A DNA stretch of 64,000 nucleotides from an uncultured SAR86 cluster bacterium (GCA_963926355.1 CAWUWW010000006.1:38872-102871), one strand, 5' to 3'. Positions 1,840 to 57,650 are shown, counted from the stretch's first letter. Numbers and translations: made by a program. The notes: generated by a model from the sequence alone, not told the origin.

Positions 1840-3675
1840 ATGACAGAGAAAAAATCAATATGGGGAAAGGCTGATAGCTTTTTAAGTCTTACAAGAAAAA
1901 TTATAGTTAATGGTGTGACTGGACTTGTTCTGGTTGTAATTACTTTATCAATCTTAGGTGGAGTTACTTCTATTTTTTCAGGGTCTGATGAGGTTGAAAC
2001 AAAGGATAAAATTTTATGGTTTAAGCCAGTTGGTGTAGTAGTTGACTCTGAGGTAATTGGACAAGGCTCATTTTCATTAAACAAGATAGTTACAGGTGGG
2101 AGTACTCAATCTGATCAACATGAATTACAAGATCTTTTAGATGTTCTTGATAAAGCGGCAAACGATGAAAACTTGAGCGCAGTATATGTAAATGTTTCTG
2201 AGTTAGGAATGTATTGGGCATCAGCATTCAAACTTGCAGATGCAGTTAAAAGTGTAAAAGATAGTGGTAAGCAAGTTATTGCATACTCTGAGGGTTATGG
2301 TAATTCAGCCTACCTTATAAGCTCTCAAGCAAATAAAGTTTTTGTAAATAATTATGGTGGTGTTAACGCTTTTGGCTTCTCTAGGAAGAGAGAATACTAC
2401 GTAGATTTTTATAAAAATATAAAATTAAATTTTAATATTTTTACTGCTGGTGATTTTAAATCTGGTCCAGAGCCATATACAAGAGATTCCATGTCAGAAA
2501 ATGATAAGCGAGCATGGAATGAATTTGCCAACCCTATGTGGCAAAAAATGACAGGAATGATGGAGGAAGGAAGAGGTTTACCTAGTGGGACATTACAAAA
2601 CTATGGCGATCGTTTTTATGAAATGATGATAGATAATCCTGAAGCTGCTGAGGTAGCTTTAGAAATAGGCTTAGTAGATTATTCAGTAACAAGAGAGGAG
2701 TTCAAAGAATGGATGTTTGAACAATATCCAAATGAAGAAGAAGATAAATATGCATTTCCTGATAGCATCTCAATATATGACTACCTATCAACTATAGAAA
2801 AGGATAAAAATCCATCTAAAAATATTATTGCAATTATAAATGTTGAGGGTGCAATCATGACTGGCGAGACTGCTTATGGAGTTGCAGGATCAGATACAAT
2901 TGTAGAAAATATTCAAGCAGCAACTCAAGATAAATCTGTTAAAGCAATGGTGTTGAGAGTAAATAGCCCGGGTGGTGATGTATGGGCCAGTGAATTGATA
3001 ACAAATGCTTTGATTGAATTTAAAGAAACTGGGAGACCTGTAATAGCTTCAATGGGAGATATAGCAGCTTCTGGGGGAGTTTGGGTTACAACTAATTCAG
3101 ATGAAATATGGGCAGAAAAAGATACTTTGACTGGCTCTATTGGAGTCTATGGCATTATCCCAACGCTAGATGGGATATACGACTGGGCCGGAATAAAGGT
3201 TGATGGAGTAAGCTCAACCAAGGCTGCTGAGTGGGACGAAAGAGAATCAATGCCAAATGATGTTAAGAATACTATTCAAGCAAGCATTGATAATACATAT
3301 TTTAAGTTTGTAACCAAGGTTGCTGAAAATAGAGGCATGACATATGAAGAGGTTCTGCCTATTGCCGGTGGAAGAATATGGGCTGGATACAAGGCACTTG
3401 AATTAGGTCTTGTTGATAAAATAGGTGATCTAGAAGATGCCCTAGCATCAGCAGCTGAAAGAGCTGACTTAAAAGACTTTAAAATTAAAACCTATAAAAA
3501 ACCTGTGGATCCAATTGATGCTATTTTAAATGAATTGCTAGAAAATATTAATATTAAAATTGATGTAGACCCTAGGTTAGAATTAATAAGCTCTACCATT
3601 CCAAAACAACTAAAAGTTATTAACCCTTCTAAAAAAAGCGTGCTAGTGTATTGCTTTGATTGCGACTTAGAGTAG
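1840..3675 (+). CDS. sppA: signal peptide peptidase SppA, 67K type (tandem S49 domains)
   Basis: 611 aa. N-terminal TM segment and two S49 halves. The second contains VLRVNSPGGDVWASE and GDIAASGGVWV (serine nucleophile context). Confidence 0.85.
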   Translation: MTEKKSIWGKADSFLSLTRKIIVNGVTGLVLVVITLSILGGVTSIFSGSDEVETKDKILWFKPVGVVVDSEVIGQGSFSLNKIVTGGSTQSDQHELQDLLDVLDKAANDENLSAVYVNVSELGMYWASAFKLADAVKSVKDSGKQVIAYSEGYGNSAYLISSQANKVFVNNYGGVNAFGFSRKREYYVDFYKNIKLNFNIFTAGDFKSGPEPYTRDSMSENDKRAWNEFANPMWQKMTGMMEEGRGLPSGTLQNYGDRFYEMMIDNPEAAEVALEIGLVDYSVTREEFKEWMFEQYPNEEEDKYAFPDSISIYDYLSTIEKDKNPSKNIIAIINVEGAIMTGETAYGVAGSDTIVENIQAATQDKSVKAMVLRVNSPGGDVWASELITNALIEFKETGRPVIASMGDIAASGGVWVTTNSDEIWAEKDTLTGSIGVYGIIPTLDGIYDWAGIKVDGVSSTKAAEWDERESMPNDVKNTIQASIDNTYFKFVTKVAENRGMTYEEVLPIAGGRIWAGYKALELGLVDKIGDLEDALASAAERADLKDFKIKTYKKPVDPIDAILNELLENINIKIDVDPRLELISSTIPKQLKVINPSKKSVLVYCFDCDLE

Positions 3676-4353
3676 TTTTTTAATTAAAGGTATTGTAATT
3701 TTTCGCTTCATTTCCATTGAGAGCTGATCAAGGCTCTCAAGGATTCTTACTAAATCTGATAGATTCCTTTTAGCATAAGTTAGGAGGTATTGAGCTTCCC
3801 TTCCCCCTAAGTCAATTGATCTTAGGTTAGCTATAGACTTCAGCGCTTCTAATAAGTTATCTTGATTAATTTGAAATAGCTCATAGCTAGCAACTTTTCT
3901 CAATCTTGATTCTAAGTCTGGTAATGAAAAACTCAAAGAGCCTATCTCTAAGGACGATGCAAAAACTAATCTGCAATTAGAATTTAGTGAGCTATTAATT
4001 AAATTAAAAATTCCCTTCTCCCATTCTTTGTCTGAAGTAATATGCTCTAGTCCATCAAGACAGACCAGGTCCATAGTCTCAACTGAATCTAATATACCAA
4101 CACCATACGAAATTACTTCTTTTAGTGGAATATACAAGGATGGCCTGCCCTCGCCACTGTATGCATTGCACAATGATTGGAGTAAATATGTTTTTCCAGA
4201 GTCTTGATTGCCATATATAAATATATCGTCTAGTTGTGATAAATCAGCAATAGTTGAAATAAGCTCACTATTAGAAGGATCTTCATAGAAATGATCAAAA
4301 GAAGATTTATATGCTTTATTCCAAGGAAATGTAAGCTGCTTAGGATTATTCAT
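3667..4353 (-). CDS. hda: DnaA regulatory inactivator Hda
   Basis: N-terminus MNNPKQLTFPW resembles E. coli Hda MNTPAQLSLPL (clamp-binding motif region). AAA+ Walker A-like GNQDSGKTYLLQS. The track ORF extends to an upstream ATG at 4386; I prefer 4353. Confidence 0.7.
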   Translation of the reverse strand: MNNPKQLTFPWNKAYKSSFDHFYEDPSNSELISTIADLSQLDDIFIYGNQDSGKTYLLQSLCNAYSGEGRPSLYIPLKEVISYGVGILDSVETMDLVCLDGLEHITSDKEWEKGIFNLINSSLNSNCRLVFASSLEIGSLSFSLPDLESRLRKVASYELFQINQDNLLEALKSIANLRSIDLGGREAQYLLTYAKRNLSDLVRILESLDQLSMEMKRKITIPLIKKLL

Positions 4354-4897
4354 TATGGTAGGCCTTAATGTCGTAATACCAGTCATATGCGTAAACTATA
4401 AGACTTATTAAAGTAACTATAACAATAGAAATATCTAAAGCTACTAATGAAATGCTAACACCAAGAAGCTCAAATAATATAATAATAAAGATATAGGTAA
4501 TCTGAAGAGCTGTAGTTAACTTCCCAAGAATATTAGGAAGAGGAGCATTTGATTCTATTAAAGTCATTTGTATTGCTGCGCCGAGTAAAATTGCAACATC
4601 CCTACTTAAAAAAATAATAAAAATATAAAGAGGGATATATTCACTTACCCATAGAATAAAGATAGTTCCTGATAAAAGGAGTTTATCCGCAACAGGATCT
4701 AGTATTGTTCCTAATTCTGTTCTCCATTCCATTTTCCTTGCAAGAAAGCCATCAAGCGCATCTGTAAGTGAGGCAATAGCAAAAAATATAAGACTCATCA
4801 TAAAATCTTTATTAAGAATGCTCTCAAGAATTGGATAAATCAAAGCTATCCTTAATATGGATAAGAAATTAGGAATAAAAATAAAATACTTACTCAT
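4346..4897 (-). CDS. pgsA: CDP-alcohol phosphatidyltransferase (phosphatidylglycerophosphate synthase-like)
   Basis: 183 aa polytopic. The DALDGFLARK...G...DPVADK motif matches D(x)2DG(x)2AR...G(x)3D(x)3D. Confidence 0.75.
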   Translation of the reverse strand: MSKYFIFIPNFLSILRIALIYPILESILNKDFMMSLIFFAIASLTDALDGFLARKMEWRTELGTILDPVADKLLLSGTIFILWVSEYIPLYIFIIFLSRDVAILLGAAIQMTLIESNAPLPNILGKLTTALQITYIFIIILFELLGVSISLVALDISIVIVTLISLIVYAYDWYYDIKAYHNE

Positions 4898-8296: not shown

Positions 8297-8851
8297 TGTT
8301 ACGCCTGTTTGCCCTTGATACTTTCCACTTCTATCCTTGTAACTTACCTCACACTGCTCATCAGATTCAAAAAATAGCATTTGAGCAACTCCTTCGCCTG
8401 CATATATTTTTGCAGGAAGATTGGTTGTGTTAGAAAATTCCAAGGTTACGTGCCCTTCCCATTCAGGTTCTAATGGGGTGACATTGACTATAATTCCGCA
8501 TCGTGCATATGTAGATTTACCTAGACATATAGTTAATACGTTTCTTGGAATTCTAAAATATTCAACGGTTCTTGCTAAAGCAAATGAATTTGGAGGAATA
8601 ACACAAACATCAGACTCAATATCTACAAAACTTTTTGCATCAAATGACTTAGGGTCAACGATTGCAGAATGAATATTTGTAAATACTTTAAACTCTTTTG
8701 CGCATCTAACATCATAGCCGTAACTAGAAACACCGTATGAGATTAATTTTTCACCATTTTCGTCAAGCCTAACTTGGTTTTTTGAAAAAGGTTCTATCAT
8801 TTTATCTTCGATAGATTTTCTTGTTATCCACTTATCTGATTTAATCGACAT
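8282..8851 (-). CDS. dcd: dCTP deaminase
   Basis: 189 aa. [10 protein letters not shown]-terminus typical of gammaproteobacterial Dcd. [18 protein letters not shown] and [11 protein letters not shown] motifs. Confidence 0.92.
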
Positions 8852-9437
8852 TTACTTCAGTTCTCCCTTGAATTGCTCTCGCAATGGTATTTCCATCGAC
8901 ATACTCTAACTCTCCACCAATAGGAATGCCATAAGATATTCTTGAAACTTTAATATCTTTTACATGATCACTAATGAACATTGCCGTGGCGTCTCCTTCT
9001 ACGGTGGAGCTTGTAGCTAAAATAACTTCTTGTACATTTTCAGAAGATATTAGGCTTAAAAAATTATCTATACCAAGATCTTCTGGGCCAATCCCCTCAA
9101 TTGGTGAAAGTCTTCCAAGAAGAACGAAGTATTTACCCCTAAAGCCACCTGTAGATTCTATGGCAAGGACATCTGATGGACTTTCTACAACGCAAATGCT
9201 TAAACTATCTCTGGAGGTATCTGTGCAAGTTTTACATAATTCATTTGAAGTAAGCATCCTACACCGCGAGCACCTTCTGACGTGCTCTAGAGCTTCTTTC
9301 ATTGTTTTAGCTAAAATACCTGCACCGTCTTTATTTTTATCAAGCAAATAAAGAGCCATTCTCTGTGCAGATTTTTTTCCAACACCCGGAAGGATTGTTA
9401 GAGCATTAATTAAGTCATTTAATAAGTCTTGGTTCAT
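8841..9437 (-). CDS. recR: recombination protein RecR
   Basis: [13 protein letters not shown] helix-hairpin-helix, Cys4 zinc finger [16 protein letters not shown], Toprim [14 protein letters not shown]. Confidence 0.95.
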
Positions 9438-11107: not shown

Positions 11108-11548
11108 CTAACTAAAAATAGAGTCAATTTCTTTAAAACTAAAGCCTCTATTTTGTAGAAAACTCTTTTGCTTTGCCTTGCCTTTAAAGTCACCGGAAAT
11201 ACCATCTTTAAATTTTTTATTAAAGACATTTTTAACTGCTTCGGTCCAGCCCCCCTCCTCATCAATAGCAATAGATGATAGGGATTCGCTAACCCCTCTA
11301 AAGTTAAGCTCATAAGCAATACGCTTTGGTCCAAAACCTTTTCTTTTACGTGCTCTAGTATACATTTCTGCATATCTAGAATCATTTATAAGCGAGGTTT
11401 GCTTAAGTTTTTTAACAGCACTTTCAACAACATCCCTTTCATCAAATTTGATTAAAAGTTTATCTCTAACTTCTTTTTCTGAGTGCTCTCTTCTTGAAAT
11501 AATATCAAGAGCTTTGTTGTAGATGGTAGGAAAAATTTCTTCGTTCAT
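11108..11548 (-). CDS. recX: regulatory protein RecX
   Basis: ALDIISRREHSEKEVRDKL, three-repeat helical pattern, YTRARKRKGFGPKRIAYEL. The track ORF starts at a GTG inside the upstream MFS gene; the ATG at 11548 lies 2 nt after the MFS stop. Confidence 0.75.
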   Translation of the reverse strand: MNEEIFPTIYNKALDIISRREHSEKEVRDKLLIKFDERDVVESAVKKLKQTSLINDSRYAEMYTRARKRKGFGPKRIAYELNFRGVSESLSSIAIDEEGGWTEAVKNVFNKKFKDGISGDFKGKAKQKSFLQNRGFSFKEIDSIFS

Positions 11549-11549
11549 T

Positions 11550-12824
11550 TTAATCAAATTGTTTGTCAGCACTCGCAAATAAAAGGTAGTAAATTCCGCC
11601 AAAAACAAGAAATCCACTGCATATATTAAATATTAGCGTCCAAGAGTTCGTAGCTTGAAGAATTATACCTGCAATGATCGGACTTAACAGTGCTGCAACC
11701 ATACCAAGACTCCCTGAAATTCCAAACAAAGAACCGGTATATTTTGGACCAAGGTCTGCATGGTTAACTCCATACCCCCCTGCTCCAAGTCCTGAACATA
11801 AATTAGTTAGGCATAGCAAAGTGATCACCAGCAAGATTGAGTCTTGAAAGGGAAGAAGAAATAAAAATAGTGCAGCTCCAAAAAAACCCAAACTATTAAA
11901 AAACTTTCTAACTTTAATAGTTTTATAGCCTTTTTTAATAAGCATATCTGCAGAAATACCACCTAAAATAAGAGCAAATACAGAAACAATACTTGGTACT
12001 AGTATTAGTAAAATAAATAGCTTGGATCCAAGCTCCAATCCTAAACCGCCCATTTCTCTTGAAGAGCTCATAAATTTTGGCAGGTATGAAAGGAAGGTGA
12101 ATAAGGCCCAGTTATTACAAAAAGTTGCAACAACGATAGCAGTAAAAGGCCCGTTTTTAATAACCTCTAAAAAAGGGATTGAAGGTGCTGAAGAATCTGT
12201 GGGAGCCTCAGCTTTAATATAATAAAGTTCTTCATTGGATATACTTTTATGATCTTCTGGGTATGAGGTAACCACTTTTTGCCAGAAGAAAAATAACAAT
12301 ATTCCAAGAGCCCCAAAGGAATAAAAAACCCATTCCCAGGAATATCCTTCAATAATCATAGCTGTTACAACAAGGCCGAAAACTGAGCCAAATGAGATTC
12401 CGCTATTTGTAATAGCTATCGCTCTAGTTCTTTCCTGAAAAGGAATCCATCTAGCATATATTGAGTGCCATGCTGGAAAAGTAACACCCTCTCCAAGTCC
12501 CATTAAAATTCTTATTAAAATTAAGAAGAAAAACCCACTATACGCAAAAGCTGGAGTAATTAATGTAAAGAGTGACCAGAAAAGTAGACCATATGCGAGA
12601 ACAATCTTCCCCCCATACTTATCAGCTAGAAACCCACTAAAAGTCATAGATATGATATAGCCAAAGTAAAAAGAGGCAAGAATAATACCCACCTGGGACT
12701 CACTCCATCCAAACTGGGCTTGCATGGGAATGATTGCAACAGAGATATTTACACGATCTATAAAACAAATAAATACAGCTAGAAAAGACATAAAAACTAT
12801 CCTAAATCTAACTGGAAAAATCAT
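11550..12824 (-). CDS. MFS transporter (anion:cation symporter-like)
   Basis: 424 aa with about 12 TM segments. DRVNISVAI near TM1 and a GFLADKYGGK loop (MFS D-R/K-x-G-R/K-like motif). Substrate unknown. Confidence 0.7.
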   Translation of the reverse strand: MIFPVRFRIVFMSFLAVFICFIDRVNISVAIIPMQAQFGWSESQVGIILASFYFGYIISMTFSGFLADKYGGKIVLAYGLLFWSLFTLITPAFAYSGFFFLILIRILMGLGEGVTFPAWHSIYARWIPFQERTRAIAITNSGISFGSVFGLVVTAMIIEGYSWEWVFYSFGALGILLFFFWQKVVTSYPEDHKSISNEELYYIKAEAPTDSSAPSIPFLEVIKNGPFTAIVVATFCNNWALFTFLSYLPKFMSSSREMGGLGLELGSKLFILLILVPSIVSVFALILGGISADMLIKKGYKTIKVRKFFNSLGFFGAALFLFLLPFQDSILLVITLLCLTNLCSGLGAGGYGVNHADLGPKYTGSLFGISGSLGMVAALLSPIIAGIILQATNSWTLIFNICSGFLVFGGIYYLLFASADKQFD

Positions 12825-19220: not shown

Positions 19221-19305
19221 TGGTAGGGATGGAGGGGATCGAACCCCCACGCCTTGCGGCACTAGGTTCTAAACCTAGCGTGTCTACCAGTTCCACCACA
19301 TCCCC
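19221..19305 (-). tRNA. tRNA-Leu (anticodon UAG)
   Basis: 85 nt, folded by hand. Acceptor GGGGAUG/CAUCCCU (G1-U72), 3-bp D stem, anticodon arm CUAGG-UUUAGAA-CCUAG, 13-nt long variable arm UGCCGCAAGGCGU, T arm GGGGG-UUCGAUC-CCCUC, encoded ACCA end. Confidence 0.92.
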
Positions 19306-19354: not shown

Positions 19355-19744
19355 TTACAAATCGTAAGAAATTTGATTCTTTCTACTTTTGTGAATTGTA
19401 TATAGTGAAATACAAAAAATGAAACCCACTATAAAAGTTGCCACTGAGAAGTCAGTAAAGCCTTCATAAATAAAACCAAAAATTTTTGCAACCATCATTG
19501 TTGAAGTGATGTAAATCAAAATAGTTCCTATTTGAACTTTTGATGAAGAGTAAACATACCTAATGGTTAAATAGCCACAAGCCAATATAAATCCAGCATA
19601 GGTCCTAACCAGGATTGATTGATCAGCACCTTCTATAGAAAATGGAATGAAAATATTATTAACATTCGGACCAAAAACAGTAACTGCCCCCATTACTAAA
19701 AATAATAAGCCAATAGAAACTAAAAATATTCTAAAAATAATCAT
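19355..19744 (-). CDS. small 4-TM membrane protein, function unknown
   Basis: 129 aa from the ATG at 19744. The track start is a TTG at 19801. ATGA overlap with the stop of the upstream small ORF. Confidence 0.5.
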   Translation of the reverse strand: MIIFRIFLVSIGLLFLVMGAVTVFGPNVNNIFIPFSIEGADQSILVRTYAGFILACGYLTIRYVYSSSKVQIGTILIYITSTMMVAKIFGFIYEGFTDFSVATFIVGFIFCISLYTIHKSRKNQISYDL

Positions 19745-19953
19745 AATACTCCAAGCATATAAAGGGCTATAAGAAAAGAAATTCCTCCAACACCCATCCA
19801 AATATACATTTCTTTATAATTTTTAAACTTATATGAGTTAATTGCAAGGAAACAGCAAAAAATTGGAGCAACTACCAAAACCCCATATCCAATTAATATT
19901 GCCAAAGGTATGAATGCTAATAGTAAAAAAGCTTGTAAAAACCACTTATTCAT
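19741..19953 (-). CDS. small 2-3-TM membrane protein, function unknown
   Basis: 70 aa from the ATG at 19953 (MNKWFLQAFLLLAF...). The track start at 19968 is a TTG. Translationally coupled (ATGA) to the next ORF. Confidence 0.45.
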   Translation of the reverse strand: MNKWFLQAFLLLAFIPLAILIGYGVLVVAPIFCCFLAINSYKFKNYKEMYIWMGVGGISFLIALYMLGVL

Positions 19954-19990: not shown

Positions 19991-20638
19991 CTATTCGGAC
20001 TCAAACTCTAAATTATCACTGTCCATGGCGGATATCTCAGTTTGAATCTCTGCAATTGTTTGATTTAGCTGAATTTTATAAGTATTAAGTGCTTGAACTG
20101 AATCATCGATTAAAATAAGTTGGGTTTCTAATGATTTAATAGTTCTTTGAATATCTTGCATCTCCGAGATACCAAGAGTAAGTTTGTTTATTTGTAATTC
20201 ATTATTTTTAATAGTCTGTTTATTTAATTTAATTTCTTTGGAAGATGTTTGAGTGATGGTAAGCAAGTCTTTAGAGATTTTTTCTAACTCTGTTAGAGAT
20301 TTACTTAATTTGGCAATATTAACTTTATTTTTTTTGTTACTTAAATCCCAAAGCTTTCTAACCTCTTTATCTAAGAATTGTATAGAGGAGCTAATATCAG
20401 TAAGAGAGTCATTGTTAGTTTCATCTGCAATATTGATTTGTTCTTCAATGATTACCAATCTATTATCTATTAATTCTAAAGTTGTATTAATCGACTTTGA
20501 TTCAAAACTTTGCCATATAGCAAGAGATAAAATACTCATAAAAACAAGAATGTATATAAAACCAATAAATAAGCCTCCTGAGCTAGATTTATTTAAGTAG
20601 GCAGGTGATGTTTTGTCTGGTCTTATGTCTGAGTTCAT
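19991..20638 (-). CDS. N-terminally membrane-anchored coiled-coil protein, function unknown
   Basis: One TM segment (GLFIGFIYILVFMSILSLAIW) followed by about 160 aa of heptad-like I/L/K/E/N/Q-rich sequence. Confidence 0.5.
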   Translation of the reverse strand: MNSDIRPDKTSPAYLNKSSSGGLFIGFIYILVFMSILSLAIWQSFESKSINTTLELIDNRLVIIEEQINIADETNNDSLTDISSSIQFLDKEVRKLWDLSNKKNKVNIAKLSKSLTELEKISKDLLTITQTSSKEIKLNKQTIKNNELQINKLTLGISEMQDIQRTIKSLETQLILIDDSVQALNTYKIQLNQTIAEIQTEISAMDSDNLEFESE

Positions 20639-30041: not shown

Positions 30042-33418
<3,377 letters not shown>

Positions 33419-36406
33419 TTATGTTTCTGCAAATTCTAGTGCTTGATTTACATCAACAGATACCATTCTAGAAACACCAGCTTCTTGCATAGTAACTCCC
33501 ATCAAGTGGTCACTTTTTTCCATTGAAACCTTGTTGTGGGTTATAAAAATAAATTGGACTGTTTTTGACATTTCTTCAACCATGTTTATAAATCTCATTG
33601 TATTTAGATCATCTAAAGGTGCATCAACCTCATCTAACATACAAAAAGGTGCTGGATTAAGTTCAAATATTGAAAACACTAGGGCAAGAGCAGTTAAGGC
33701 CTTTTCACCGCCTGACAATTGAGAGATGGATGAATTCTTTTTACCAGGAGGTCTAGCCATTAGAATAACACCTGCGTTTAAAGCGTCATCATCTGTTAAA
33801 GTTAGTTCTGCAAAGCCTCCACCAAATAATTTTGGAAAAACTTCCTTAATTCTAACGTTAACAGCATCAAAACTTTCCTTAAATCTTGATTTTGTCTCAT
33901 TATCTATAGTTTTTATAGCGCCTGAGAGCTTGTCTAATGCCTCAGTTAAGTCATCGTACTGAATATCAAGCTCTTCTTTACGTTTAGACTCCTGGGCTAT
34001 CTCCTCAGGAGCTGCGAGGTTAATAGCTCCTAACCTGATAATACTAGCTTGAATATCTGAAAGCTTATCTTGTAAATCCTTAATATTCATGCCTTCATAT
34101 TCTGAATAATTAATATCCTGAACTTCTAGACCGGATTCTTTAATTTTTACATTAGCATTTTCTAAATTTATCTCATATGTCTTTAACTCTAATCTAGTAT
34201 CAGTAACCTTCTCTGTAATGGTCTTTAAATCTAGCTCTGCAATTGATTTTTTATTTTCTAAATCTCTCAAGCTTTCATTGAACTTAGATTGCTTTTGACG
34301 TATCTCAGTAAGAATTGATTCAGCTGAAGAGCTTTTTTGAAGCAAGTCTGTCATGGTCGTTTCAATATCTTTTTTTCTAGTTCCTGTTTCTGAAATAACC
34401 TTAATAAGATCATTTTGCCTAGTAAGGTACTCTTCTGGTGCTGCCAAATTAACTGAGCCTAGAGCGGTAATATTTCTCTGAACTTCACTCAAGGAAATTT
34501 CAAGATTTTCTAAATTTAAATCTTTAAATTCATTTGGGTTTATATCGGAGATCTTAATATCTGCCTTGCTTAGAACATCAGATGCATTTTGTAAGTTAAC
34601 CTCATATGTTCTTAAGTCTAGTTTTAAGTTATTTACCTCTCTATCTAAATCCCTAAGTTCGTTAGAAGCAATAGAGCTCTTACTTTCAAGACCTCTAACA
34701 TGATCATCAATCTCTAGCTTTAATTGCTTAATTGAATTTAATTCACCCTCTGAATTATTTTTTCTTAAATTCAGTTCTAATAACTCTTTTTCGGCAATTT
34801 CTCTCTTCTGTATAGTTATCTTAATGAGATCAGATAAATCATTTTGTCTTGTTAAGTACTCATTAGTTAGACTTTTTGATTGAGCTGATGCAAGTTGAAA
34901 AATATTTTTTAATGAGTCTTTAAGTTCAGCTGTCTTAGATGAAATGCTATCGTTTTTTAGATTAAGACTTTTTACTGCATCAATGATCGTATCTAATAAA
35001 TGCAGTGCTTTTTCTTTTGGGCTTAAATGCTCAAGATTGGATTCTCTTTCTTCAGCTTTCTTGAAGCTTTCTTTAGCTTTTTCAAGGTCTATCTTCCCTT
35101 GGGCCTCTACTCTATTTAGATTGGCTATACTTTCTTCAAGTCTAGCGGTATTTGCCCCTATAGAAAAGCTATCTTTTTGAGCGGAATCTGATTTAGAGGC
35201 GATTGATAGCTGTCGCTCTTTAACCTCATTTTTCTTTTCTTGATGTGAGTTAACCTCTGATTGTTTTAAAGAGATTTGAATTTCCAGCGGCCTTACCTTA
35301 GCCTCAAGAGTATTCTTCTTATCCATGGCCTCAAGAGCTTTAATAATTGATATATTAAGTTTTAATTCTTTTTCTTTTGGGCTCAAGTCTTTAAAAGCTG
35401 ACTCTTTTTCTATTGCCTTTTTGTAACTCTCCTTGGCCCTTTCCAAGCCCTGCTTACTTTCAGACTCTGTCCTTGTTAAATTTTGAAGATTTGTTTCATA
35501 TCTAGCAATCTCTGCACCAATTGAGTAAAAATTCTTTTGTGCATTTTCATAAGCATCTACAACTGATTCGTTTTGAGTTCTAAATTCATCAATCTGTGAT
35601 TGCTTTGTTTGAGCTTCAGCTTCTCTAATCTTAAAATCTCTATTCAAGGCATCAAGATTTTTTTGCAACCTATCTCTACTATTCTTAGCTTCTAATGAAA
35701 ATAATACTGCTGTATTGAGTTGGTTTTTAGATTCATCATTTTTTAAAGCATTATACTTATCTGCTGCATTAGCCTGATTCTCAAGCCTTCTAATAAGCCT
35801 AGCAATTTCATCTCTAATATCCTTAACTCTAGATAGATTTTCTTTTGTCTTTTTAATTCTGCTTTCTGTTTCTCTTCTTCTCTCCCTGTACTTAGAAACT
35901 CCAGCAGCTTCCTCTATATGAGTTCTTAATTCCTCAGGCTTTGCACTAACAAGCCTGCTAACCATTCCTTGTTCTATAATTGCATAAGAGCTTGGCCCTA
36001 AACCAGTACCAAGAAATATATCCTGAACATCTTTTAATCTGCATTTTGTATTATTTATAAAATAATCAGACAAAGCATCTCTAGTCATAACTCTTTTAAT
36101 TGATATTTCGTTAAAAGAAGCGTACTCACCTCCGATCTTTCCACTTGAATTATCAAATAACAATTCAATACTGCATTGACCGGAAGCTTTTCTATTCTCA
36201 GAACCGTTAAAAATAACATCAACCATAGATTCGCCTCTAAGGTTTTTTGCTGATCGTTCGCCTAGCACCCATCTAACTGCATCAATTACGTTTGATTTTC
36301 CACACCCATTTGGTCCAACAACGCCAACAAGGTTAGTTGGAAAGGAAATTTTCGTTGAATCTACGAAACTTTTAAAACCGGCTAGTTTTATGTGCTTAAG
36401 TTGCAT
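33419..36406 (-). CDS. smc: SMC-family chromosome segregation ATPase (no recognisable hinge; see findings)
   Basis: FKSF, Walker A GPNGCGKSN, signature LSGGEKALTALAL, Walker B FCMLDEVDAPLD, D-loop region. 995 aa. Locus context smc-zipA-ligA. Confidence 0.85.
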   Translation of the reverse strand: MQLKHIKLAGFKSFVDSTKISFPTNLVGVVGPNGCGKSNVIDAVRWVLGERSAKNLRGESMVDVIFNGSENRKASGQCSIELLFDNSSGKIGGEYASFNEISIKRVMTRDALSDYFINNTKCRLKDVQDIFLGTGLGPSSYAIIEQGMVSRLVSAKPEELRTHIEEAAGVSKYRERRRETESRIKKTKENLSRVKDIRDEIARLIRRLENQANAADKYNALKNDESKNQLNTAVLFSLEAKNSRDRLQKNLDALNRDFKIREAEAQTKQSQIDEFRTQNESVVDAYENAQKNFYSIGAEIARYETNLQNLTRTESESKQGLERAKESYKKAIEKESAFKDLSPKEKELKLNISIIKALEAMDKKNTLEAKVRPLEIQISLKQSEVNSHQEKKNEVKERQLSIASKSDSAQKDSFSIGANTARLEESIANLNRVEAQGKIDLEKAKESFKKAEERESNLEHLSPKEKALHLLDTIIDAVKSLNLKNDSISSKTAELKDSLKNIFQLASAQSKSLTNEYLTRQNDLSDLIKITIQKREIAEKELLELNLRKNNSEGELNSIKQLKLEIDDHVRGLESKSSIASNELRDLDREVNNLKLDLRTYEVNLQNASDVLSKADIKISDINPNEFKDLNLENLEISLSEVQRNITALGSVNLAAPEEYLTRQNDLIKVISETGTRKKDIETTMTDLLQKSSSAESILTEIRQKQSKFNESLRDLENKKSIAELDLKTITEKVTDTRLELKTYEINLENANVKIKESGLEVQDINYSEYEGMNIKDLQDKLSDIQASIIRLGAINLAAPEEIAQESKRKEELDIQYDDLTEALDKLSGAIKTIDNETKSRFKESFDAVNVRIKEVFPKLFGGGFAELTLTDDDALNAGVILMARPPGKKNSSISQLSGGEKALTALALVFSIFELNPAPFCMLDEVDAPLDDLNTMRFINMVEEMSKTVQFIFITHNKVSMEKSDHLMGVTMQEAGVSRMVSVDVNQALEFAET
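34001..34861 (-). repeat. intragenic tandem duplication B in smc (aa 516-658 vs 659-802, period 143 aa)
   Basis: Both copies begin EYLTRQNDL, contain L(R/K)TYE(V/I)NL(Q/E)NA, and end LG(S/A)(V/I)NLAAPEE. The DNA copies are clearly diverged. Confidence 0.8.
34952..35542 (-). repeat. intragenic tandem duplication A in smc (aa 289-408 vs 409-485+, period 120 aa)
   Basis: AQKNFYSIGAEIARYETNLQNL...LSPKEKELKL aligns with AQKDSFSIGANTARLEESIANL...LSPKEKALHL. 40 of 77 positions are identical in my hand alignment. Confidence 0.8.
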
Positions 36407-36437: not shown

Positions 36438-37217
36438 CTATTGTTCCTTTTTTAACCATTCATTTGCTTGAATTTTATAGGTATTTGACGACATATTGCG
36501 GTCAAATAAAATTGAGGTATTTAATGAGAAATTATTTGTAGAATTTTGACACTCAAGGAAGATTTTTATATTAATGGTTTCTTGATTTAAATATGCTGAG
36601 GTAATATCAAATCCTGGTATAGAGGAGTCTTTGTTTGTCAGAACAATAGGCTCAAAAGTTAAAAAATTTACGCTCGCAATTGGTATGTTTGGGCCATTCA
36701 TTATAAAAAGCTCCGCTGTTCCCTTGATTGGTGAGCAAACTAGAGCATTCCCAAACTCTATAATTAAATCTGATTTAGAATATTTTGGAAATTTTGCATC
36801 TCTCAACTCAGTATAAATATTATAAAAAAGAAATTTTTCTTCAGGGCTTTGAAAGTAACTTTCTGAAAACGAGATCAAGCTCTCCGCTGTATTAAATTTT
36901 TTGAGTGAAATGGCATCTTTAATATACGAAGTTACCCATAAAAGGATAAGCTCTTGGTTAATCTGCCCCTCTAATTTAACAAAAGCTTCATTAGTTATAG
37001 CTTTATCTTCAGAAATTAATGCAAGAAATTCACTATTAAGTTGTTGATCTTTAAAGGAGCCTAAAAATGAAAATTTTCCTATAAATGAAAATATACAAAA
37101 TAAAATAATAACTATTGAAAGCCCAAAAATATAGCCTTTATTTTTTGTTCTTTGAGAAAGAAGATATGCAAAAATAGGAAGTAATGCAAAAATTACAAGT
37201 AAATATATGTAAATCAT
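36438..37217 (-). CDS. membrane protein at the CcmI position of the ccm operon (CcmI-like assignment is tentative)
   Basis: Two N-terminal TM segments and a 4-nt overlap with the ccmH stop. I could not recognise TPR repeats. Confidence 0.35.
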   Translation of the reverse strand: MIYIYLLVIFALLPIFAYLLSQRTKNKGYIFGLSIVIILFCIFSFIGKFSFLGSFKDQQLNSEFLALISEDKAITNEAFVKLEGQINQELILLWVTSYIKDAISLKKFNTAESLISFSESYFQSPEEKFLFYNIYTELRDAKFPKYSKSDLIIEFGNALVCSPIKGTAELFIMNGPNIPIASVNFLTFEPIVLTNKDSSIPGFDITSAYLNQETINIKIFLECQNSTNNFSLNTSILFDRNMSSNTYKIQANEWLKKEQ

Positions 37218-56827: not shown

Positions 56828-56902
56828 GCCTTCTTAGTTAAATGGATATAACAGATCCCTCCTAAGGATTAGTTGCAGGTTCGATTCCTGCAGAGGGCGC
56901 CA
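56828..56902 (+). tRNA. tRNA-Arg (anticodon CCU)
   Basis: 75 nt, folded by hand. Acceptor GCCUUCU/AGAGGGC, D arm GUUA-AAUGGAUA-UAAC, anticodon arm GAUCC-CUCCUAA-GGAUU, T arm GCAGG-UUCGAUU-CCUGC, G73, encoded CCA. Confidence 0.9.
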
Positions 56903-56948: not shown

Positions 56949-57650
56949 CTACTCAACTCTTACCATCAAGTCGTCTGAGTGCTCTAATACATCAAGTTTC
57001 ACATCAGCTAGTTCACTTTCATGAATATCGCCAATTACCTTAACTTTTTTAGCAAAGTCTGCATAACTATCGTAACCACAAACAAAATACCAAGCCTGTT
57101 CTGGGCCCAAGATATGCTCCATTAAATTGCAACCACCAAAGGCAGTATCATATGCTCCAAATATTTTTCTAGCATTAGCTCTTTTTTCATTATCAGTTAG
57201 ATAAGGTCCAAAAGAATAAGTTGCCATAAGAATATAAGGCGTCTTCTTCCTTAGATTTTTTTCAACCATTGCCAGTAAGTTATCAGAATGATCTCCATAT
57301 AACTGCTTAGGCTCTCTAGTTAAAGGCTCATCAGCATTATCATTTATCTCTGCAAACTGCTCCCAGCTATCAAAATAACAATAAGTATAGAAAGCTCTAT
57401 CTCCACCAAATTGATGTCTTAGCAATCCACATACGTTATATCCATCTTCTTCTAGTGATTTAACATTTTCTAAAAGACTTTTGGCAATCTTGTCTGCGTT
57501 AGAACCTGCGGGCATTGTGTATGAAGATAGGTAAGCTAAGTTATGTTCCATTTTTTTTGTTTCATGAGTAGCTTCACCATTTTCATGATGCGCACTGAAA
57601 GCAAAAAAACTTAAACTTAATAGCGGCAATAATATAAATATTTTTTTCAT
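56949..57650 (-). CDS. secreted protein made of two tandem ~100-aa repeats (ferredoxin-like/ABM-like guess), function unknown
   Basis: Signal peptide ending FSA, then HHENGEATHE. Internal repeat: YNVCGLLRHQFGGDRAFYTYCYFDSWEQFAEI vs FGGCNLMEHILGPEQAWYFVCGYDSYADFAKK. Confidence 0.5.
   Translation of the reverse strand: MKKIFILLPLLSLSFFAFSAHHENGEATHETKKMEHNLAYLSSYTMPAGSNADKIAKSLLENVKSLEEDGYNVCGLLRHQFGGDRAFYTYCYFDSWEQFAEINDNADEPLTREPKQLYGDHSDNLLAMVEKNLRKKTPYILMATYSFGPYLTDNEKRANARKIFGAYDTAFGGCNLMEHILGPEQAWYFVCGYDSYADFAKKVKVIGDIHESELADVKLDVLEHSDDLMVRVE

Follow-up and report, generated by a model that had tools for sequence, protein, structure and literature searches.

A hingeless Smc with paired tandem duplications in its coiled-coil arms at the smc-zipA-ligA locus of a SAR86 cluster bacterium

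We analysed a 64,000-nucleotide stretch of DNA, hereafter the window, from an uncultured SAR86 cluster bacterium (GCA_963926355.1, CAWUWW010000006.1:38872-102871), and we focus on its smc gene, which encodes a 995-amino-acid (aa) Smc protein that lacks a hinge. The gene lies at 33419..36406 on the minus strand, with its stop codon at 33419-33421, as called from the open reading frame (ORF) list and translation, from matches to TIGR02168 and SMC_N, and from heads that align to structure 5XG3. A ccm operon is located 5' of smc, and zipA and ligA follow downstream. zipA (32792..33418, minus strand; 208 aa; ZipA_C E = 4.3e-12) begins directly after the smc stop, and ligA (30628..32787, minus strand) encodes a 719-aa NAD-dependent DNA ligase with Pfam DNA_ligase_aden, OB, HHH, and BRCT domains. 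The smc-zipA-lig order, which we take to be typical of gammaproteobacteria (for example, P. aeruginosa PA1527-1529), is also found in SAR86 relatives and beside other hingeless Smc forms of 736, 827, and 906 aa.

Both halves of the ATPase head are canonical, as an earlier note on this DNA had stated. The N-terminal half (aa 1-170; 35897..36406, minus strand) has an entropy of 0.12 bits over 30 species and a ratio of nonsynonymous to synonymous substitution (dN/dS) of roughly 0.01, and it carries the Walker A motif GPNGCGKSN at aa 31-39 (GPNGCGKS at 36293-36316). The C-terminal neck and head half (aa 802-995; 33422..34003, minus strand; entropy 0.19) carries the signature LSGGEKALTALAL at aa 897-909 (LSGGE, aa 897-901, at 33704-33718) and the Walker B/D-loop FCMLDEVDAPLD at aa 921-932 (Walker B at 33626-33643). 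The head-proximal N-arm, composed of the neck and the N-helix of the Smc joint, is present in a single copy (aa 171-235; 35702..35896, minus strand; entropy 0.34); it is colinear with positions 171-235 of a canonical profile and is predicted to be helical by AlphaFold2 (AF2). The protein matches Pfam SMC_N over aa 3-979 (E = 1.4e-51) and scores 837.5 bits against NCBIfam TIGR02168 (SMC_prok_B; cutoff 567.35), the latter match being split into three stretches because the centre of the protein is unmatched. The two head halves align to structure 5XG3 (head and joint of B. subtilis Smc) with 183 and 182 bits. Based on the head motifs, the profile scores, and the zipA and ligA neighbours, we identify the protein as the Smc orthologue of this SAR86-cluster gammaproteobacterium, encoded at the usual gammaproteobacterial position. 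SAR86 orthologues (for example, P0075, P0083, and P0120) are named just “AAA family ATPase” at NCBI, a systematic under-annotation.

The earlier note had claimed that this Smc has neither a hinge nor the cysteines of a zinc hook, and both claims stand. The SMC hinge model PF06470 finds no match in the central 555 aa even at E <= 10, a PDB search with the protein matched no hinge chain, and the Gly/Pro-rich central hump that is present in canonical relatives is not seen in the window Smc. The only cysteines are at positions 35, 78, 122, and 922, with none in aa 123-921, and therefore the arms contain no CXXC motif or zinc hook. The PF06470 search, which the note had named as a check, gives the expected result but is not decisive alone: at E <= 0.01 the model also misses the hinges of two relatives of canonical length, P0124 (1160 aa) and P0126 (1167 aa), both of which have a central Gly/Pro hump and hinge-type sequence. 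We therefore built a lineage-matched hinge hidden Markov model (HMM) in its place, using 100 of its closest canonical relatives (the region of P0124 aa 500-680) and holding out 37 canonical controls. For the held-out controls listed, the profile matches at aa ~500-690 with 43-193 bits, and P0126 scores 131 bits against it. The window Smc scores 1.5 bits, at a coil-like end of the profile, and other SAR86 forms give negative bits. For gammaproteobacteria, the Pfam hinge model alone is no basis for calling hinge loss.

Structure prediction gives the same picture. In a full-length AF2 run, made with a shallow multiple sequence alignment of 34 sequences, the heads were unusable (pLDDT 20-45) and the arms reached 80-90; from this run only the secondary structure of the arms was used. 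A second run on the fragment aa 290-700 had a mean pLDDT of 83.8, exceeding 90 in the inner coil. Both runs predict a helix that begins at aa 342 or 291 and extends to 459, a kink at LSP 460-462, a helix at 463-480, a turn at 481-485, and a helix at 486-614. In these models, the centre of the window Smc is a helical hairpin without a globular domain. A Foldseek search with the arm hairpin returned arm fragments of Rad50, MukB, and Smc (target TM-score 0.81 for 5NNV and 0.68 for 5XG2); these neighbours are generic long coiled coils, and their value is limited to ruling out a globular domain. With PF06470, the PDB search, the Gly/Pro profile, the lineage-matched HMM, and AF2 all in agreement, the absence of the hinge is confirmed. 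The apex, which had been placed near aa 490-515, is slightly more N-terminal in the models, at the turn.

The arms contain two tandem repeats. On the N-strand, an outer copy A1 (aa 236-355; 35342..35701, minus strand) is followed by an inner copy A2 (aa 356-475; 34982..35341, minus strand), and on the C-strand an inner copy B1 (aa 516-658; 34433..34861, minus strand) is followed by an outer copy B2 (aa 659-801; 34004..34432, minus strand) that ends in the joint loop LGAINLAAPEE. In repeat A, aa 289-365 and 409-485 are identical at 40 of 77 positions, with a local alignment score of 185 compared to 32.4 +/- 5.9 for shuffled sequences (z = 26). In repeat B, aa 516-658 and 659-801 are identical at 53 of 143 positions, with a score of 278 compared to 45.6 +/- 8.4 (z = 27.7). 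A self diagonal scan recovers the off-diagonal signal that the earlier note had anticipated in a dot-plot, at offsets 120 and 143 (scores of 114 and 106 versus 42 +/- 6 for shuffled arms). When averaged over 30 species, the offset-120 signal covers ~aa 226-355, showing repeat A to be a full 120-aa tandem unit. The 40 of 77 identities and the period of 120 that the note had reported for repeat A are exact, but the full unit (236-355/356-475) is 120 aa rather than 77; for repeat B, the reported period of 143 is confirmed. In the same scan of nine hingeless or canonical relatives, seven fall inside their own shuffled range with no strong diagonal, and P0125 (49 versus 48) and P0143 (57 versus 50) are marginally above it. 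Self-BLASTP of the whole window Smc returned the identity alignment alone.

At the DNA level the repeat copies are well diverged, as had been noted, with nucleotide identities of 53% (A) and 49% (B), and at third codon positions the copies are ~40% identical compared to a background of 31 +/- 2%. This divergence argues that the duplications are old and not assembly artefacts. We also considered a single DNA event as the origin of the A-A-apex-B-B order and rejected it, as a tandem duplication of A-apex-B would give A-apex-B-A-apex-B.

We next turn to the orthologues. Each of more than 120 protein clusters at 72-92% identity has a length of 995 aa and no hinge match, on contigs of up to 912 kb. 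In a GTDB survey with one genome per species, we examined 72 loci (L004-L075), many of them from SAR86-cluster single-amplified genomes (SAGs) and metagenome-assembled genomes (MAGs) and others labelled generically as Gammaproteobacteria or Proteobacteria; a “SAR86B” MAG is among the nearest relatives, which are 92% identical. Across these 72 species, Smc is 995 aa long in 29, 732 aa in 26, 730 aa in 2, 727 aa in 8, and 810 aa in 6, and marine metagenomes contain more hingeless forms of 736, 827, and 906 aa, each adjoining zipA. The difference between the two commonest lengths (995 - 732 = 263) is the sum of the two repeat periods (120 + 143), and by alignment the 732-aa form is without exactly one A and one B unit and is otherwise colinear. 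The earlier proposal that both strands were lengthened together is thereby shown directly. There are no indels within classes, whether among the 29 species at 995 aa or the 26 at 732 aa, despite identities of 67-92%, and this strictly invariant length per class implies strong selection against indels in the arms. No strong diagonal indicative of internal repeats was seen in the scan of the other length classes. The ungapped 995-aa orthologue occurs across SAGs, MAGs, and long-read contigs of up to 1.3 Mb, which, together with the >120 clusters and the 29 GTDB species, bears out the earlier view that the architecture is not an assembly artefact. Separately, two hinge-bearing relatives, P0143 (990 aa) and P0261 (1071 aa), have arms that are shortened; P0143 keeps its hinge but lacks the adjacent canonical positions ~382-450 and ~728-791. 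Arm shortening with hinge retention therefore also occurs among the relatives.

To place all forms on a common reference, we used a full-length profile of canonical relatives (~1170 aa) with 1169 positions. The 732-aa form is composed of an N-block (1-374) and a C-block (820-1168) and is missing ~375-819, that is, the hinge and the distal arms. The corresponding blocks are 1-368 and 748-1168 in the 810-aa form (missing ~369-747), 1-431 and 734-1168 in the 827-aa form (missing ~432-733), and 1-427 and 716-1168 in the 906-aa form (missing ~428-715). Mapped in this way, the hingeless relatives amount to nested central deletions that removed the hinge and the hinge-proximal arms, roughly 290-445 positions. 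The outer blocks of the window Smc are colinear with the same reference, with aa 1-334 on profile positions 1-334 and aa 663-994 on 837-1168 (468 bits), the latter also supported by the 5XG3 alignment. Its inner blocks map a second time to proximal positions, with aa 337-472 on 217-353 (22 bits) and aa 477-663 on 802-980 (44 bits). The inner half of each arm is thus a paralogous copy of the proximal arm and not the original distal arm. The inner copies are not present in the short forms, A2 being missing from the 732-, 730-, and 727-aa proteins. The single A unit of the short forms is closer to the outer copy A1 (54% identity) than to the inner copy A2 (32%), and their single B unit is closer to the outer copy B2 (53%) than to the inner copy B1 (30%). 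The inner copies also change at about double the rate of the outer ones (identity within the clade of 0.50 for A2 and 0.52 for B1 versus 0.75 for A1 and 0.70 for B2). On these comparisons, we take A1 and B2 to be the ancestral head-proximal arm and A2 and B1 to be derived.

The duplication has a consequence for the anatomy of the arm. From geometry and homology, we infer that A2 pairs with B1 as a new inner module, that A1 pairs with B2 as the old outer module, and that the end of A2 pairs with the unduplicated apex helix at 486-515. The B unit exceeds the A unit by 23 aa, and AF2 predicts ~24 non-helical residues in B1 (615-631 and 649-656); these breaks match those predicted for the true joint in B2 (758-774 and 797-799). 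The joint loop LGAINLAAPEE of the window Smc aligns to the B. subtilis joint loop in 5XG3. In B. subtilis, a continuous N-helix of the joint (188-253) lies opposite a C-part of four helices (922-1011) (PMC5526789). B2 holds this C-part of the joint, and B1 would therefore be a duplicated joint C-part in mid-arm, whose non-helical loops would make up the additional 23 aa. The copy in B1 (aa ~596-660) has the helix-loop repeats “LDLRTYEVNLQNA...LGSVNLAAPEEY”, and its joint-like residues are invariant in 34 sequences. The B1 stretches LDLRTYE.NL.NA ... LGS.NLA.PEEY and the end of A1, FKDL.PK.ELKLNISIIKA, are near-invariant in the 995 clade, while other B1 residues drift. This pattern suggests a second structured joint-like seam in mid-arm. 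The true Smc joint is a ParB interface (PMC9449133).

Arm length can be estimated from protein length L as (L - ~333)/2, which gives means of ~198 aa for the short forms, ~237 aa for the 810-aa form, and ~330 aa for the long form. The arm of B. subtilis Smc is 344 aa, engineered arms are functional in windows of 253-267, 321-373, and 407-435 aa, and the natural Smc arm-length modes are at 163, 238, 341, 423, and 515 aa (PMC5344682). The arm of the 995-aa form (~330 aa) lies in the canonical window. The earlier note had described the arms as lengthened. Both strands did grow by comparable amounts, but the growth rebuilt an arm of canonical length after a deletion and did not extend it beyond normal.

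Based on these data, we think it probable that the gene is the single functional Smc orthologue of SAR86, and that its hinge was lost and its arms were re-extended by paired duplication. The protein consists of canonical heads, neck, and joint, followed by one continuous antiparallel coiled coil, predicted to reverse at a helix-turn-helix at aa 481-485. A central deletion would have taken the hinge and the distal arms (~428-715 in the 906-aa form and, in forms of 727-736 aa, ~375-819). Later, on the stem of the 995 clade, a 120-aa N-strand unit and a 143-aa C-strand unit would each have been tandemly duplicated, placing the new inner module A2:B1 between the old A1:B2 and the apex and taking the arm from ~198 to ~330 aa. 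We propose that the product remains an ATP-driven Smc whose conserved neck and cap presumably bind a kleisin, and that it dimerises probably by ATP-engaged heads, kleisin bridging, and side-by-side arm contacts, with the conserved apex hairpin possibly adding an apex-apex contact. Functional constraint on arm length and register may be the reason why selection favoured the paired duplication. There is precedent for parts of this proposal in B. subtilis, where arm contacts add to the dimerisation of a hinge-less Smc (PMC5526789) and where hinge-deleted Smc(EQ) still goes to parS, a mini-Smc(EQ) having been made to map the ParB/parS-binding region (PMC4785775).

A different view is that constitutive dimerisation is provided by the apex hairpin, as a new module in the form of a four-helix bundle or a RecN-like tip contact that replaces the hinge and closes the ring or rod at both ends. 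The apex element (aa 446-530; 34817..35071, minus strand) occupies the site of the usual hinge, and its tight turn at aa 481-485 corresponds to 34952-34966; it is defined by the two AF2 runs, by conservation, and by the lack of a hinge signal. The helix before the turn reads “LSPKEKAxHLLDxII” and the helix after it “K..ELK..L..I..IAsaQSKsLT-EYLxRQN”. In the 995/73x clade, aa ~455-525 are more conserved than the flanking inner arms, with entropy dips at 451-480 and 496-510, and L461, P463-A467, A506, S507, Q509, S510, S512, and T514 are invariant in 34 sequences. The short forms carry the same motif. That a hinge can be swapped for another dimeriser is the message of the title of PMC6969161, and zinc-hook Smc strains are reported in PMC5344682. 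However, no common apex motif is found across all hingeless classes, as it is missing from the 810-, 827-, 906-, and 736-aa forms; AF2 confidence is at its lowest at the apex (pLDDT 61-79); the apex has no cysteine or zinc hook; and its conservation could merely serve nucleation of the fold-back. We therefore regard a dimerising apex as possible but somewhat doubtful.

The direction of change rests on the phylogeny of the forms. We built a neighbor-joining (NJ) tree from the regions common to all forms, with seven canonical Smcs as root and 100 bootstraps, and obtained the topology (906,((827,810),(736,(727...,(995,(732+730)))))). The 995 clade is monophyletic in 96 of 100 bootstraps and sister to 732+730 in 70 of 100, and it is nested among the 727- and 736-aa short forms. 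Given this nesting, parsimony favours derived duplications, and hence an order of hinge loss, more trimming, and re-lengthening by duplication in the stem of the 995 clade. The reverse history, in which the 995-aa architecture is ancestral and the 727-732-aa forms arose by recombination between repeat copies, draws on three observations. First, the A unit of the short forms is chimeric in its similarity, as from unequal crossing-over: its first three quarters are nearest A1 and its last quarter is nearest A2 (0.54 versus 0.39). Second, NJ trees place the inner copies outside all the other units. Third, a rough clock from unit identities puts the duplication at 1.1-1.3x the long/short split. 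The nesting of the 995 clade in the 727 and 736 short forms would nevertheless require that both copies were deleted at least twice, and precisely each time. The chimeric pattern is equally explained by context, since the end of A2 keeps its ancestral partner, the apex helix, and this would keep that quarter similar to the short forms. The deep placement of the inner copies is explained by their faster rate and is compatible with long-branch effects. We consider an ancestral 995-aa architecture unlikely.

We also weighed whether the gene is a decaying or re-purposed Smc relic in a streamlined genome, no longer a chromosome-organising dimeric motor and perhaps a monomeric ATPase. The hinge and ~40% of the arms were lost in a small-genome lineage, orthologues are annotated merely as AAA family ATPases, and PMC3919155 describes smc nulls as mild in many bacteria and under slow growth. 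Set against this, the heads, neck, and joint are near-invariant (0.12-0.34 bits over 30 species), length is exactly conserved within classes, dN/dS indicates strong purifying selection throughout, and the gene is kept across at least 72 species. The matched duplications, moreover, actively rebuilt the arm, and this would make little sense if arm geometry had no importance. We find a relic highly unlikely. Finally, although repeats can cause assembly collapse and the protein is 150-200 aa below typical Smc length, we give practically no credence to the missing hinge being a misassembly, collapse, or frameshift, or to the protein being RecN, SbcC/Rad50, or MukB/MksB, because the same ungapped 995-aa protein comes from independent SAG, MAG, and long-read assemblies, the repeat copies are just 49-53% identical in nucleotides, and the competing families score far too low (RecN 23 bits versus 408, Rad50 models far under their cutoffs, no MukB/Mks match).

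Several observations weigh against a functional, hingeless Smc with arms re-extended by paired duplication. For the closest pairs, dN/dS is ~0.01 for the heads and 0.03-0.12 for the inner arms, with dS saturated so that the values are rough. The arms of the short forms (~198 aa) are off the natural modes of 163, 238, and 341 aa. A scan of 43 ORFs in the window with Pfam and, for a few, also with NCBIfam found neither ScpA nor ScpB. Dimerisation-defective B. subtilis Smc localises poorly to parS (PMC4785775), and a hingeless Smc would therefore need some compensation. The restriction of the apex motif to the 995/73x clade weakens a universal “mini-hinge” role for the apex, and the AF2 monomer models have a pTM of only 0.28 (full-length) and 0.41. 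With regard to the duplications, no single-duplication intermediate (852 or 875 aa) was seen among the orthologues, the placement of the fast inner copies in the NJ unit trees falls short of proving a duplication in the stem lineage, and two duplications of 360 and 429 nt, ~480 nt apart, would have had to be fixed without an intermediate with mismatched arms.

Other features of the locus and its counterparts are of separate interest. ZipA is reduced: the window protein of 208 aa scores 27.7 bits against TIGR02205 (cutoff 119.65), and a 157-aa protein with a weak ZipA_C match (L076 5087-5560) comes after the 906-aa hingeless Smc. In sister SAR86 lineages (L001-L003; Smc 73% identical), the ccm-smc-zipA-ligase-SLT order is kept, and a 427-aa ATP-dependent ligase (PF01068 + PF14743; 13630-14913, plus strand) stands in place of the NAD-dependent LigA of the window. 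Between ccmH and smc lies a 259-aa ORF (36438-37217, minus strand) with a 257-aa counterpart in SAR86 relatives and two N-terminal hydrophobic or transmembrane helices. No family of Pfam or NCBIfam matches it, and we regard it as a probable divergent CcmI-like ccm component, not a kleisin. Three further ORFs on the minus strand, at 56949-57650, 19355-19801, and 19991-20638 (233, 148, and 215 aa), have no convincing family, the 215-aa ORF showing a weak SlyX-like C-terminus alone (E = 0.002). Elsewhere in the window are recR (8841-9437), recX (11108-11617), and a gene for an Hda-like protein (3667-4386), all on the minus strand, as well as tRNA-Leu (19221-19305, minus strand) and tRNA-Arg (56828-56902, plus strand).

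The hinge, a central globular domain of about 150-190 aa with a Gly-rich interface, is regarded as a defining and essential feature of SMC proteins, responsible for constitutive dimerisation and DNA binding and proposed to act as a DNA or bypass gate. In the surface ocean, few bacterial lineages are as abundant as SAR86, and an ecologically dominant lineage with a strongly conserved hingeless Smc is a natural system in which to ask when the hinge is needed and how it can be replaced. Engineering of B. subtilis Smc has led to the idea that arm length and register are tuned, and the length classes and the paired duplication to ~330 aa support it independently, from evolution. With a joint C-part present twice, one can also ask what the joint does in ParB binding and head orientation. 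Taken together, and more tentatively, at somewhat less than even confidence, we suggest that the SAR86 chromosome is run by a hingeless Smc whose arms changed in discrete jumps (727-736, 810, 827, 906, and 995 aa) and in which a matched-module rebuild gave a mid-arm joint-like element. If this is true, and if the complex is still a loop-extruding Smc-kleisin motor, then in nature neither dimerisation nor DNA entry or obstacle bypass would require the hinge. Closure of an SMC ring by the helical apex, or by contacts between arms, would then be a previously unknown mode, and the length series would be a natural experiment on quantised SMC arm length.

How does this protein compare to known systems? 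RecN also combines an SMC-family head with an antiparallel coiled coil that has no hinge, and in D. radiodurans it reportedly dimerises through the coiled-coil tip. RecN is, however, a protein of ~550 aa with short arms, while the window Smc is 995 aa and scores 23.2 bits against the RecN model TIGR00634 (cutoff 407.85). Rad50/SbcC likewise has hinge-less heads and long antiparallel arms, and 7ZR1 is among the top Foldseek matches to the arm. Rad50/SbcC dimerises via a CXXC zinc hook, whereas the SAR86 Smc has no cysteine in its arms and scores 24-42 bits against NCBIfam Rad50 models with cutoffs of 700-1087. MukB, MksB, and JetC are SMC-like motors with a reduced or divergent hinge that occur in gammaproteobacteria; the window Smc has no Pfam or NCBIfam match to these families, which keep a small globular hinge, in contrast to the SAR86 Smc with no predicted globular domain.

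With canonical bacterial Smc (TIGR02168; 5XG3, 3ZGX, 5NNV), the SAR86 protein shares the heads and their motifs, the neck, the joint with LGxxNLxAxEE, the antiparallel coil, the smc-zipA-lig position, and an arm of similar length (~330 aa versus 344 aa in B. subtilis). Canonical Smc has a hinge, whereas the SAR86 arms are predicted to end in a 5-residue turn, and, unlike in canonical Smc, the distal half of each arm is a paralogous copy of the proximal arm, with a second joint-like C-part in mid-arm. Engineered B. subtilis mini-Smc and resized-arm Smc (Minnen 2016, PMC4785775; Buermann 2017, PMC5344682) were made by fusing the halves after removal of the hinge and central arm, and the SAR86 forms of 727-736 aa are in essence mini-Smcs of natural origin. 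Arm length seems to be a constrained, quantised trait in the engineered B. subtilis proteins and in SAR86 alike, and the residual dimerisation via arm contacts in hinge-less B. subtilis Smc (Diebold-Durand 2017, PMC5526789) parallels what we propose. The B. subtilis constructs are laboratory-made, and the reports concern parS targeting and dimerisation of EQ mutants rather than full function. In contrast, the SAR86 Smcs are natural and under purifying selection in dozens of species, and one clade appears to have re-extended its arms by duplication.

A comparable natural case comes from a 2025 survey of the ocean gene catalogue (Environ Microbiome), which describes an abundant “hinge-less” SMC cluster that is assigned to Actinomycetes, lies near actinobacterial seeds, has no CXXC, and has no regular SMC alongside it in GORG-Tropics single-cell genomes (PMC12153180). 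Compared by description only, that cluster and the SAR86 Smc are alike in their SMC-type heads, hingeless coiled coil, lack of CXXC, and marine origin. They differ in that the cluster is assigned to Actinomycetes, whereas the window Smc is gammaproteobacterial and lies at the smc-zipA-lig locus; either hinge loss occurred independently or the cluster in PMC12153180 was taxonomically mis-assigned. SAR86, arm-length classes, internal duplications, and a deletion series are not described in PMC12153180, and a search of the literature on SAR86 SMC, hingeless SMC, and arm duplication found nothing relevant beyond it. Hinge loss itself has therefore recently been described in kind, and what we add is that SAR86 hosts such an Smc, that its lengths fall into classes, and that its arms carry a paired duplication with a second joint-like element.

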